Shown piece after piece: positions 53,183 to 56,019 of a DNA stretch of 64,000 nt. Source of the stretch: Escherichia coli. Lineage in GTDB: Bacteria; Pseudomonadota; Gammaproteobacteria; Enterobacterales; Enterobacteriaceae. The notes under the pieces were generated by a model, which worked only from the letters and a program-made list of their open reading frames with translations, did not search any database and was not told the origin of the DNA. A program made the translations under genes and the position numbers. How positions within the stretch are numbered: position 1 is the first letter of the stretch; every line of letters begins with the position of its first letter. Location of the stretch: the NCBI RefSeq assembly GCF_003334355.1, contig NZ_QOWP01000002.1, one strand, 5' to 3'.

Positions 53183-54910
53183 TCACTGACTGATGTCAGT
53201 CACACCATCCGCCAGTTCAATCAGGCGAATAAATTCCGCCCTGTAACCCTGTGGATCTTCCCCTTTTGCCTGCTGAGCCCACTGTTTGATCTGCTGCCAG
53301 GAGGTATTGTTCAGGTATTCAGAACCGCGTAACTTTTGCCCATATGCAGCTACTGCTGCGCGAAAACGCATATCTTCAGAGGGCGCGTTTATTGTTGGCC
53401 CCAGCGGGAATTCAACTAACTGACTTTCTTTTCCCTGCGGGTATTTCCAGCGAATTTTTAACCAGGCCAGTTCTTTCGTTTTGTCCGATTTCGCTAATTT
53501 GTTATCCGGGGCATAGCGTAACTTATCAATTGATGCTTTTTGCCCGTTCAGCGTTAATTCGAATAACAACGTTATATGTTTGCCTGCGCCTATATCCCCT
53601 GCATCAACGTTGTCGTTATTAAAATGTTCCACCCGAAGTTGGCGCTTTTCATAACCAATCTGACGGTATTCCGTTACCCACGCGGGGTTAAACTCAATTT
53701 GCGCTTTGACATCTTTTGCTACGGTAATCAACATCTGCCGCATTTCACTATTCAATACTTTCTGCGCTTCAGAGAGGGTATCAATGTAGCTGTAGTTGCC
53801 GTTACCAACATCGGCAATTCGCACCATCATTGCCTCGTTGTAATTGCTATTCCCCACGCCAAACGTCGACAGAGTAACACCAGACTCCCGCTGTTTTTTG
53901 ACCATTGATTCAATCGATTTTGGATCGTCAATGCCAACGTTAAAGTCACCGTCAGTGGCTAATAAAATGCGATTGATGCCGCCCTTAATAAACCCCTTCG
54001 TCGCCTGCTGATAAGCCAGTTCCAGCCCGGCACCGCCATTGGTACTGCCTTCGGCATCCAGCGAATCAATTGCGGCATTAATTTCCGCCTTATGACTCCC
54101 GGAGATAGAAGGCAATGCAATACGGGAGTCGCCAGCGTAGGTCACGATGGCAATGTTATCCTGCTCACGAAGTTCTTTGACCAATAATTTCAACGAAGAC
54201 TGGATAAGTGGCAAACGTTCATCAGAAATCATTGAACCAGAAGTGTCGATAAGAAAGACCAGATTAGAAGCTGGTAACTCTTCACTTTTGCGATCTTTCG
54301 CCAGGATATCAACTTTCAGCAATGTTCGCTGTTCATTCCATGGTGCAGGTGCCAATTCGTAGCGCATAGCGAAAGGTATTGGCTTAGAGGCCGGAATAGA
54401 TTGTTTGTCTTTGATATCCCAATCAGACGGGAAATAATTGACTATCTCCTCCACCCGCACAGCGTCTGGCGGAGGTAACAGCCCTTGATTGAGGAAACGC
54501 CTTACATTCGCATAACTGCCAGTGTCAACGTCAAGACTAAACGTCGCCAACGGATTTTGCGCTACCTGCTTAACCGGATTATCATCGAACTGCTGGTAGC
54601 GAGCGGTTCCTGGATTTGCGATATGTGTAGCTTTTGCTTTAGCCGCTCTTGCAAATGTTGGCGCTTCCTGCAATCGCCCCTGTAAAGCCTGTTTGTCTGA
54701 ATATTGTTGCACTTCTTGCTGGGCCAAGGCTTTCGCGGCGGCGGCGCTTTGCTCAGCCTCTTTTATTGCAGCTTGCTGCGCGGCAAGCACTTGCTGCTCT
54801 GTGGGAGTACTGGGTTGTTGTTGCTGACTTTCCTTATTCTCAGGTTGCGGCCCACATCCTGACAAAATCAAACTACTCATAAGCAACATGATTATATTTT
54901 TATTTCGCAT
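53183..54910 (-). CDS. yfbK: von Willebrand factor A domain lipoprotein
   Basis: 575-aa ORF. Lipoprotein signal peptide MRNKNIIMLLMSSLILSGC (lipobox LSGC), a Gln/Ala-rich linker, and vWA MIDAS motif VFLIDTSGSM. Confidence 0.88.
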   Translation of the reverse strand: MRNKNIIMLLMSSLILSGCGPQPENKESQQQQPSTPTEQQVLAAQQAAIKEAEQSAAAAKALAQQEVQQYSDKQALQGRLQEAPTFARAAKAKATHIANPGTARYQQFDDNPVKQVAQNPLATFSLDVDTGSYANVRRFLNQGLLPPPDAVRVEEIVNYFPSDWDIKDKQSIPASKPIPFAMRYELAPAPWNEQRTLLKVDILAKDRKSEELPASNLVFLIDTSGSMISDERLPLIQSSLKLLVKELREQDNIAIVTYAGDSRIALPSISGSHKAEINAAIDSLDAEGSTNGGAGLELAYQQATKGFIKGGINRILLATDGDFNVGIDDPKSIESMVKKQRESGVTLSTFGVGNSNYNEAMMVRIADVGNGNYSYIDTLSEAQKVLNSEMRQMLITVAKDVKAQIEFNPAWVTEYRQIGYEKRQLRVEHFNNDNVDAGDIGAGKHITLLFELTLNGQKASIDKLRYAPDNKLAKSDKTKELAWLKIRWKYPQGKESQLVEFPLGPTINAPSEDMRFRAAVAAYGQKLRGSEYLNNTSWQQIKQWAQQAKGEDPQGYRAEFIRLIELADGVTDISQ

Positions 54911-55047
54911 ATAAAATCCTTTTAAATAAACTCAGGCACCAGACATAAAATATACTCTTTGTATAATCCTGCTAATCTTAATAAAATACAATATCGAAAC
55001 CCATAGCAAATAATGATTCAACAACGCAACCCATTAATAATTTGCAT

Positions 55048-56019
55048 ATGAAAAAAATAATCTTTGCTTTTATTATATTATTTGTGTTTTTACTCCCTAT
55101 GATTATTTTTTACCAACCCTGGGTCAATGCATTACCGTCAACGCCCCGACACGCAAGTCCTGAGCAATTAGAAAAAACAGTTCGTTATCTTACACAAACT
55201 GTGCATCCACGTAGTGCCGACAATATTGATAATCTGAATAGGTCCGCAGAGTATATAAAAGAGGTCTTTGTCAGTAGCGGTGCCAGAGTTACCTCGCAGG
55301 ACGTCCCCATTACGGGTGGCCCCTACAAAAACATTGTTGCTGATTATGGTCCTGCCGATGGACCGCTGATTATTATTGGTGCGCATTATGACTCTGCCAG
55401 CAGTTATGAAAACGATCAATTGACCTATACGCCGGGCGCGGATGATAACGCCAGCGGTGTGGCAGGATTACTCGAACTGGCACGTTTGTTACATCAGCAA
55501 GTACCGAAAACAGGCGTGCAGCTGGTCGCCTATGCGTCGGAAGAACCGCCCTTCTTTCGTAGCGATGAAATGGGGAGCGCGGTGCATGCAGCTTCGCTTG
55601 AGCGTCCAGTGAAATTAATGATAGCACTGGAGATGATTGGCTATTACGACTCTGCGCCTGGAAGCCAGAATTACCCTTACCCGGCAATGTCCTGGCTTTA
55701 TCCCGATCGGGGAGACTTTATTGCCGTGGTCGGCAGAATGCAGGATATCAACGCCGTTCGTCAGGTAAAAGCGGCATTGTTGTCATCTCAGGATTTATCT
55801 GTTTATTCTATGAATACCCCAGGGTTTATTCCCGGTATTGATTTCTCTGATCACCTGAATTATTGGCAACACGATATTCCCGCCATAATGATTACTGACA
55901 CCGCTTTTTATCGTAATAAACAATACCACTTGCCCGGTGATACCGCAGACAGATTGAATTATCAGAAAATGGCTCAGGTAGTGGATGGTGTTATAACTTT
56001 GTTATACAACAGTAAATAA
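55048..56019 (+). CDS. yfbL: M28-family zinc aminopeptidase-like protein
   Basis: Track ORF 55042..56019. N-terminal hydrophobic segment MKKIIFAFIILFVFLLPMIIF, then GAHYDS and EEPPFF metal-ligand-like motifs. Start could be either 55042 or 55048. Confidence 0.85.
   Translation: MKKIIFAFIILFVFLLPMIIFYQPWVNALPSTPRHASPEQLEKTVRYLTQTVHPRSADNIDNLNRSAEYIKEVFVSSGARVTSQDVPITGGPYKNIVADYGPADGPLIIIGAHYDSASSYENDQLTYTPGADDNASGVAGLLELARLLHQQVPKTGVQLVAYASEEPPFFRSDEMGSAVHAASLERPVKLMIALEMIGYYDSAPGSQNYPYPAMSWLYPDRGDFIAVVGRMQDINAVRQVKAALLSSQDLSVYSMNTPGFIPGIDFSDHLNYWQHDIPAIMITDTAFYRNKQYHLPGDTADRLNYQKMAQVVDGVITLLYNSK

Follow-up and report, generated by a model that had tools for sequence, protein, structure and literature searches.

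Our results indicate that yfbK and yfbL, a divergent pair of genes at positions 53183-56019 of a 64,000-nucleotide stretch of Escherichia coli DNA (the window), are likely two separate and dispensable envelope genes located side by side, with no dedicated two-gene module, YfbK being an orphaned binder and YfbL a periplasmic M28 peptidase. A joint function is improbable, as the two are neighbours in some enterics only and each has been lost without the other. Neither gene is new, both being y-genes with an annotation in E. coli K-12, and the segment matches E. coli genomes at 100% or 99.9% identity, yfbK being annotated there as a vWA domain-containing protein and yfbL as an M28 family metallopeptidase. 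The yfbK coding sequence (53183-54910, minus strand) encodes a vWA-domain lipoprotein of 575 aa, as assigned from the open reading frame, the K-12 annotation and the Pfam architecture, and that of yfbL (55048-56019, plus strand) an M28 family metallopeptidase of 323 aa, as assigned from the open reading frame, the E. coli annotation and Pfam. The coordinates and divergent arrangement given in the original prediction were exact for both genes, and the spacer of 137 bp between them (54911-55047), which had been called AT-rich, has a GC content of 27.7%.

The description of YfbK as a vWA lipoprotein with a Gln/Ala-rich linker and an intact MIDAS motif was confirmed on each point. Its type II signal peptide (MRNKNIIMLLMSSLILSGC; 54854-54910, minus strand) is composed of a charged n-region (MRNK), an h-region (NIIMLLMSSLI) and the lipobox LSGC with Gly at +2, in agreement with the pattern used for bacterial lipoproteins, i.e., a positively charged n-region, a hydrophobic h-region and a lipobox [LVI][ASTVI][GAS]C within the first ~35 residues. 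Cys19 is encoded at 54854-54856, the L(S/T)GCG sequence is kept in the orthologues of Escherichia, Salmonella and Superficieibacter, and YfbK has been counted among the predicted lipoproteins of E. coli K-12 (PMC2850352). Following the E. coli +2 rule, the lipobox and Gly+2, with no Asp at that position, suggest sorting to the outer membrane; they predict no more than Lol sorting to this membrane, and the surface placement originally given to the protein is an assumption. Residues 20-101 (54608-54853, minus strand) form a tether with 19 Ala and 17 Gln, modelled by AF2 as a helix (38-77) and then a disordered stretch, with pLDDT below 50. The length and sequence of this tether differ from strain to strain and from genus to genus, the protein having length variants of 575-615 aa, and its dN/dS is 0.42 versus 0.13 for the core.

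The core comprises the vWF_A-N domain (vWF_A, PF12450; residues 102-199, 2e-32; 54314-54607), the VWA domain (PF00092; residues 216-383, 4e-22; 53762-54265) and YfbK_C (PF12034, formerly DUF3520; residues 393-568, 6e-66; 53207-53734), all on the minus strand, the latter modelled by AF2 as a beta-sandwich and a helical C-terminal domain; this is the three-domain order of the YfbK family. A vWA alpha/beta fold was recovered in the AF2 model (pLDDT 82.9), with Foldseek matches to solved vWA structures, the VWA domain matching ArnB, ITIH1 and BatB. The MIDAS is complete, consisting of D222-x-S224-x-S226 (DTSGS, 54233-54247), T290 (54041-54043) and D320 (53951-53953), on the minus strand, and these residues are invariant in a 25-sequence family alignment. 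Judging from the fold and these residues, the MIDAS would bind an acidic side chain of a ligand via a divalent cation. In the mechanism we propose, YfbK would carry a type II signal peptide, be lipidated at Cys19 and be sorted by default to the outer membrane, with a flexible tether of ~80 residues holding the vWF_A-N/VWA/beta-sandwich head.

Comparison with known systems placed YfbK as the namesake of the YfbK family (COG2304; PF12450, VWA and PF12034), its core being 41-52% identical to those of 24 representatives. The members differ in N-terminal anchoring only, YfbK being a lipoprotein and others displaying an anti-sigma/TM extension, an SLH-like region or long repeats. Among PDB sequences, the VWA domain was best matched by the BatA/BatB aerotolerance vWA proteins of Bacteroides (4jdu, 3ibs; E 1e-7 to 2e-6), in which the MIDAS is conserved; the solved Bat structures are VWA-only fragments of ~200 residues. 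Bat proteins are membrane-anchored and encoded in the bat operon together with MoxR-type genes, and the bat operon genes are absent at the yfbK locus. Foldseek placed inter-alpha-inhibitor heavy chain 1, archaeal ArnB and the Sec23/24 trunk highest (E 1e-15 to 1e-17), all of them with a vWA domain packed on a beta-sandwich; however, their identity to YfbK is 12-15%, with a TM of about 0.35 over the whole model, and they belong to other cellular contexts and have no lipid anchor.

The three-domain core is common to 7,150 clusters at E<=1e-30, and its gene neighbourhood points to a regulatory partner. Among 80 species-level loci of YfbK homologues, each from a different species, 50 have an ECF sigma gene within 2 kb, mostly within 250 bp and in three arrangements, while only 2 more sigma matches were found elsewhere in the flanks. 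The sigma identity was established with NCBIfam models (TIGR02937 above cut-off; PRK12513 with 274 and 214 bits versus a cut-off of 206). In Shewanella, Colwellia and Pseudomonas, which hold the closer relatives among the gammaproteobacteria, the order is vWA lipoprotein, sigma and small membrane protein, the gene after sigma encoding a single-pass membrane protein. Furthermore, a DUF3520-vWA anti-sigma factor has been described for group ECF289 (Casas-Pastor et al., 2021; PMC7826278), with the same vWA and DUF3520 extracytoplasmic head as YfbK. Unlike this protein, E. coli YfbK has a lipoprotein signal peptide in place of an N-terminal anti-sigma domain and transmembrane helix fused to the head, with no 19-residue window reaching the hydrophobicity cut-off. 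Both Enterobacteriaceae loci among the 80 are without an adjacent sigma gene, and the annotation of the 15 kb around E. coli yfbK, from menD to nuoM, includes none. Since the head is wired to an ECF sigma in most other bacteria, where it is encoded just upstream of the genes for sigma and a small single-pass membrane protein or is fused to the anti-sigma factor, the YfbK family is most likely an extracytoplasmic ligand-sensing element, as judged by gene neighbourhood only; with no sigma or anti-sigma gene at the enterobacterial locus, E. coli YfbK therefore appears to be a sensor or ligand-binding lipoprotein left as an orphan. This systematic link, in a family of thousands of clusters from many bacterial phyla, leads to the testable idea that E. 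coli YfbK may be a ligand-sensing head whose sigma was lost.

With regard to YfbL, its description as an M28 homologue with an N-terminal membrane anchor agrees with our results. The protein has a single strongly hydrophobic segment, which corresponds to the anchor at residues 1-23 (55048-55116, plus strand; hydrophobicity and homologue alignment), followed by a conserved YQPWV..PLP motif; such an N-terminal segment is found in 94 of 104 homologues, some carrying a lipobox instead. The Peptidase_M28 domain (PF04389, 3.7e-25) covers residues 95-317 (55330-55998, plus strand). Residues H113, D115, D133, E165, E166, E195 and H269 (codons on the plus strand at 55384, 55390, 55444, 55540-55545 for E165/E166, 55630 and 55852, respectively) align with H97, D99, D117, E151, E152, D179 and H256 of the Vibrio aminopeptidase, and across 105 homologues these metal and catalytic residues show little or no variation. 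They include the five co-catalytic zinc ligands (H113, D133, E166, E195 and H269) and the catalytic Glu (E165) of the M28 family. The M28 fold and zinc site are common to YfbL, the Vibrio proteolyticus aminopeptidase (AAP, 1AMP) and other secreted M28 leucyl aminopeptidases, although the fourth ligand is Asp179 in AAP and Glu195 in YfbL, and AAP is secreted with a propeptide whereas YfbL is N-terminally membrane-anchored. Another periplasmic M28 enzyme of E. coli is Iap (PRK10199, alkaline phosphatase isozyme conversion); YfbL was rejected as its orthologue, scoring 20.8 bits versus the curated cut-off of 298 bits.

From these sequence features, YfbL is a predicted inner-membrane-anchored di-zinc M28 aminopeptidase, with its N-terminal helix in the inner membrane and its M28 domain facing the periplasm, and it would probably trim the N-termini of envelope proteins or peptides. 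The predicted orientation of both YfbK and YfbL is towards the periplasm, which would make physical contact between them possible. The statement that neither protein has an assigned function was nearly true, the exception being a 2025 preprint in which a yfbL deletion was resistant to phage N4 in a complementable manner, as was a yfbO deletion; loss of YfbL reportedly blocks this phage. In the same preprint, yfbK is absent from the reported hits, although hit lists are no proof of a phenotype-free yfbK. Through the N4 phenotype of yfbL, along with that of nearby yfbO, a periplasmic M28 peptidase that has yet to be characterised becomes amenable to experiment.

At the locus, yfbK is flanked by elaD and yfbL, and in some Enterobacteriaceae the two genes occupy a variable part of the chromosome that separates rbn from nuoN. 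Inside the spacer, a sigma-70-like site for yfbL was found at 54940-54967 (CAGACA-16-TATAAT), and no comparable site for yfbK was detected within the 137 bp. The alignment of six enterobacterial spacers, of ~137 to 260 bp, displayed no conserved operator or shared regulatory element, conservation across genera being confined to the ribosome-binding site and start codon of yfbK. No credible Rfam family match indicated RNA genes in or near the spacer. Regulation by LldR was considered and rejected, given that the gSELEX peak falls within the yfbK coding sequence and has no target operon listed. PADLOC models of anti-phage defence returned zero matches for YfbK, YfbL, YfbM, YfbN, YfbO and YfbP, and searches of curated NCBIfam equivalogs for YfbK or YfbL gave sub-threshold domain-level matches only.

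The original prediction suggested that the pair may indicate an envelope module for adhesion or processing. In such a module, YfbK and YfbL would act together under a shared divergent promoter region, the peptidase, for example, maturing YfbK or trimming a protein captured by the vWA/MIDAS head. The envelope component of the prediction stands, since both proteins are predicted in the cell envelope; the module, deduced from adjacency, failed on comparison across genomes and appears unlikely. The module is favoured by the predicted extracytoplasmic location of both products and by the preservation of the divergent pair at one syntenic site in Escherichia, Pseudocitrobacter, Superficieibacter and Salmonella salamae (S. 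enterica subsp. salamae); this retention in at least four Enterobacteriaceae genera counts against the reading as separate genes. Beyond this family the adjacency dissolves: an M28 homologue within +-8 kb was found at 2 of the 80 YfbK-family loci, both from Enterobacteriaceae, leaving 78 without the pair, and none of five YfbL-homologue loci outside Enterobacteriaceae (49-56% identity, from other Proteobacteria and metagenome contigs) has a vWA neighbour, or any conserved neighbour. Likewise, the genes are not jointly present or absent. Scored at >=80% presence in 5,426 complete E. coli genomes, yfbK was found in 2,514, yfbL in 3,293 and both in 2,512, so that ~780 genomes have yfbL without yfbK, ~2,100 have neither intact, and 2 have yfbK without yfbL. 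Mainstream Salmonella enterica carries an intact yfbK without yfbL, its yfbK cluster (2,821 sequences) adjoining nuoN with no yfbL beside it at E<1, and in the E. albertii type strain yfbK is intact and yfbL is interrupted by a nonsense codon. The lack of a conserved element in the spacer, and an N4 phenotype belonging to yfbL and yfbO with yfbK not reported, are further points against joint action. The occurrence of yfbL in nearly every E. coli genome with yfbK speaks for the module, and it would also fit a functional dependence of YfbK on YfbL. As evidence of dependence it was rejected: the yfbK deletion spans window positions 53223-54778 with essentially the same junction in two sampled strains, one of which harbors a later deletion within yfbL (55309-55636), and with a single yfbK junction in common and one additional yfbL deletion behind it in these two strains, the pattern has small statistical weight. 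Our results lend no support to the pair as a functional unit, and as originally given the finding matters little.

The remaining explanations concern the proteins individually or the fate of the locus. One that we consider improbable extends the orphaned-binder reading: YfbK-type lipoproteins would be periplasmic ligand sensors controlling the adjacent ECF sigma via the small single-pass anti-sigma, and YfbK of the enterobacteria would be an orphan, rewired but still sensing the same envelope ligand, that feeds another pathway or cooperates with the newly adjacent YfbL; if true, such cooperation could tie the phage N4 receptor phenotype to this locus. Alternatively, YfbK alone may be a surface-exposed adhesin for host or abiotic ligands, comparable to vWA pilus-tip adhesins and the Myxococcus CglB lipoprotein, with yfbL irrelevant. 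An intact MIDAS on a long tether, Foldseek matches to the pilus adhesins SpaC, PitA, Mfa5 and PilB, the repeated disruption of yfbK in host-adapted Salmonella lineages, and the low RP4 conjugation efficiency of a yfbK deletion in one screen agree with this role. However, those matches reflect the generic vWA fold at 11-15% identity, the default topology of E. coli outer-membrane lipoproteins is periplasmic and the sequence holds no sign of surface exposure, and the dominant family partner, an ECF sigma/anti-sigma factor, points to sensing, which makes an adhesin distinctly improbable. It is very unlikely that both genes have lost all function in K-12 and are decaying relics of an ancestral locus, even though more than half of the complete E. 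coli genomes are without an intact yfbK and 39% without an intact yfbL, IS1 insertions and frameshifted copies occur at the locus in E. coli, and the sigma factor that partners the family is not present. Against decay, the MIDAS and zinc-site residues are all retained, and the complemented N4 phenotype, if confirmed, already refutes it for yfbL. Between intact alleles, dN/dS is 0.13-0.19 for yfbK and 0.20-0.25 for yfbL, and yfbK is under purifying selection where present, yet often lost.

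The region 53183-56019 contains two divergent ORFs, yfbK (53183-54910, minus strand) and yfbL (55048-56019, plus strand), and displays 99.9-100% identity to E. coli chromosomes in which the first is annotated as a vWA domain-containing protein (yfbK) and the second as an M28 family metallopeptidase (yfbL); both genes are already known and annotated. They lie in the order rbn-elaD-yfbK-yfbL-yfbM-yfbN-yfbO-yfbP-nuoN, with a GC content of 47% for yfbK, 45% for yfbL and 35% for elaD, against 51% for the window. The ORFs, domains, motif residues and spacer were found as described, confirming every sequence detail of the original prediction, including the divergent arrangement across an AT-rich spacer (54911-55047; 137 bp, 27.7% GC). 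The best-supported interpretation is that of two independent accessory envelope proteins, encoded in a variable segment of lower GC content.

YfbK (575 aa) begins with MRNKNIIMLLMSSLILSGC and bears the lipoprotein lipobox that had been noticed (LSGC, Cys19, with Gly at +2). The expected Gln/Ala-rich linker (the tether) spans residues 20-101, and is followed by a core of three Pfam domains, namely vWF_A (PF12450, residues 102-199), VWA (216-383) and YfbK_C (PF12034, 393-568). The MIDAS motif is indeed intact, with D222, S224, S226, T290 and D320 invariant in a family alignment of 25 members. An AlphaFold model (mean pLDDT 82.9, pTM 0.78) displays a long helix at residues 38-77 followed by disorder. 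The tether (54608-54853) differs in length among E. coli strains, giving proteins of 575, 581, 584 and 615 aa, and changes more rapidly than the core (dN/dS 0.42 vs 0.13 in intact alleles; 0.13-0.19 for yfbK). The best fold matches in the PDB were ArnB, the Sec23/24 trunk, ITIH1 and an actinobacterial vWA protein, which like YfbK combine a vWA domain with a beta-sandwich, and the nearest solved structures by sequence are Bacteroides BatB-type vWA domains. Motor-linked vWA proteins were compared with "periplasmic YfbK" in a 2025 paper (PMC12204202); surface exposure of YfbK is an assumption.

YfbL (323 aa) proved to be the M28 homologue with an N-terminal membrane anchor that had been proposed, with the domain at residues 95-317 and one strongly hydrophobic N-terminal segment, replaced by a lipobox in some relatives. 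The Vibrio aminopeptidase residues H97, D99, D117, E151, E152, D179 and H256 correspond in the alignment to H113, D115, D133, E165, E166, E195 and H269 of YfbL, which vary little or not at all among 105 homologues. YfbL is probably an M28 di-zinc aminopeptidase anchored in the inner membrane and facing the periplasm; orthology to Iap was rejected (20.8 bits vs a cut-off of 298).

The proposal that yfbK and yfbL form an envelope adhesion or processing module was not supported by neighbour conservation, by their separate losses, by the unconserved spacer, or by the phage N4 phenotype, which involves yfbL and yfbO. Using the YfbK family alignment, 80 loci from different species were retrieved from a one-genome-per-species collection, and a YfbL-like M28 gene was present within 8 kb on either side in 2 of them (Escherichia albertii and Superficieibacter electus). 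Conversely, neither a vWA gene nor any other recurring neighbour was found at five loci of YfbL homologues (49-56% identity), including Hydrogenophaga, Usitatibacteraceae and Taklimakanibacter. The divergent pair was found only in Enterobacteriaceae (Escherichia, Pseudocitrobacter, Superficieibacter and Salmonella enterica subsp. salamae), always at one syntenic site, between rbn and nuoN. Across six enterobacterial loci, the spacers have nothing in common beyond the ribosome-binding site and start codon of yfbK; the spacer had no RNA family match, and its single good sigma-70-like site (54940-54967) points to yfbL.

Of the complete E. coli genomes (5,426 in all), 2,514 contained at least 80% of yfbK, 3,293 at least 80% of yfbL, and 2,512 both, leaving about 780 genomes with yfbL alone and about 2,100 with neither intact. 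This nesting, in which yfbK implies yfbL, could be read as dependence. However, two sampled strains share an essentially identical yfbK deletion junction (53223-54778 gone), and one of them additionally lacks 55309-55636 in yfbL, leaving a frameshifted remnant; the pattern thus appears to derive from very few historical events and cannot be taken as evidence of dependence. In S. enterica, YfbK forms a large cluster of 2,821 sequences whose gene directly adjoins nuoN, and tblastn revealed no trace of yfbL. The E. albertii type strain NBRC 107761 harbors an intact yfbK and a yfbL (618-1610 of its locus) with an in-frame premature stop (…PYSAMS*LYP…); this stop may mark a genuine pseudogene or stem from a sequencing error. 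In E. coli strain CUPF12 (NZ_CP182159.1, 1542554-1545058), an IS1B element interrupts yfbK, a further independent inactivation route. Both genes are under purifying selection where intact (dN/dS 0.20-0.25 for yfbL), and are functional yet dispensable accessory genes. In a 2025 preprint, deletions of yfbL and of yfbO were reported to confer phage N4 resistance that was complemented, with no mention of yfbK in its text or hit tables; elsewhere, yfbK appears as an isolated screen hit (low RP4 conjugation, loss of rifampin-induced persistence, pseudogenisation in Salmonella lineages). The N4 phenotype and an association with ECF sigma factors are the sole leads deserving experiment.

The three-domain core is very widespread (7,150 clusters at 50% identity, E<=1e-30), with N-termini comprising lipoprotein signals, SLH-like regions, long repeats, or extensions that look by eye like anti-sigma factors with a transmembrane helix. 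Clustering all ORFs of the 80 loci revealed one recurrent neighbour, an ECF sigma factor, its identity backed by NCBIfam. In 50 loci (within L012-L087, e.g., L060:7980-11243 and L014:7908-10789) its gene was directly adjacent to the YfbK-type ORF, no more than 2 kb away; only two further sigma matches occurred elsewhere in the flanks. Three lineage-specific arrangements were observed: sigma immediately downstream on the same strand (23 loci; gamma- and betaproteobacteria such as Pseudomonas, Shewanella, Colwellia and Competibacter), immediately upstream or overlapping the start of an N-terminally extended ORF (19 loci, including Alphaproteobacteria, Verrucomicrobia, Planctomycetes and Omnitrophota), and divergent (8 loci, all Bacteroidota). 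In Pseudomonas and Shewanella, the vWA lipoprotein and sigma genes are followed by one for a small protein that spans the membrane once, has a Pro/Ala-rich periplasmic part and no family match, and looks like an anti-sigma factor; a DUF3520-vWA anti-sigma factor was previously described for group ECF289 (PMC7826278). We infer that the family acts as an extracytoplasmic ligand-binding or sensing head, and, since the E. coli yfbK locus has no sigma gene, that the enterobacterial lipoprotein has lost its sigma partner.

The surrounding site is variable. An ElaD/SseL-family deubiquitinase gene, elaD (51901-53112; 35% GC), is inserted between rbn and yfbK, where Pseudocitrobacter, Superficieibacter and Salmonella have nothing or a CheW-response-regulator gene. 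Downstream, yfbM, yfbN, yfbO and yfbP (56122-59152) form an uncharacterised block (39-46% GC) for which neither NCBIfam nor PADLOC gave a match; other E. coli strains (L002, L003) lack yfbN, yfbO and yfbP, with nuoN directly after yfbM. In Pseudocitrobacter, an AAA_15/AAA_21 ATPase gene and a 199-aa ORF between yfbL and nuoN (L004:8978-10900) look like a small defence-type cassette, suggesting that the site is an integration hotspot. Orthologues of rbn (50785-51702; RNase BN/Z) in related loci carry precomputed Pfam labels Anti-Pycsar_Apyc1 and Lactamase_B, the former probably a consequence of the metallo-beta-lactamase fold common to both families and not a sign of anti-defence activity.
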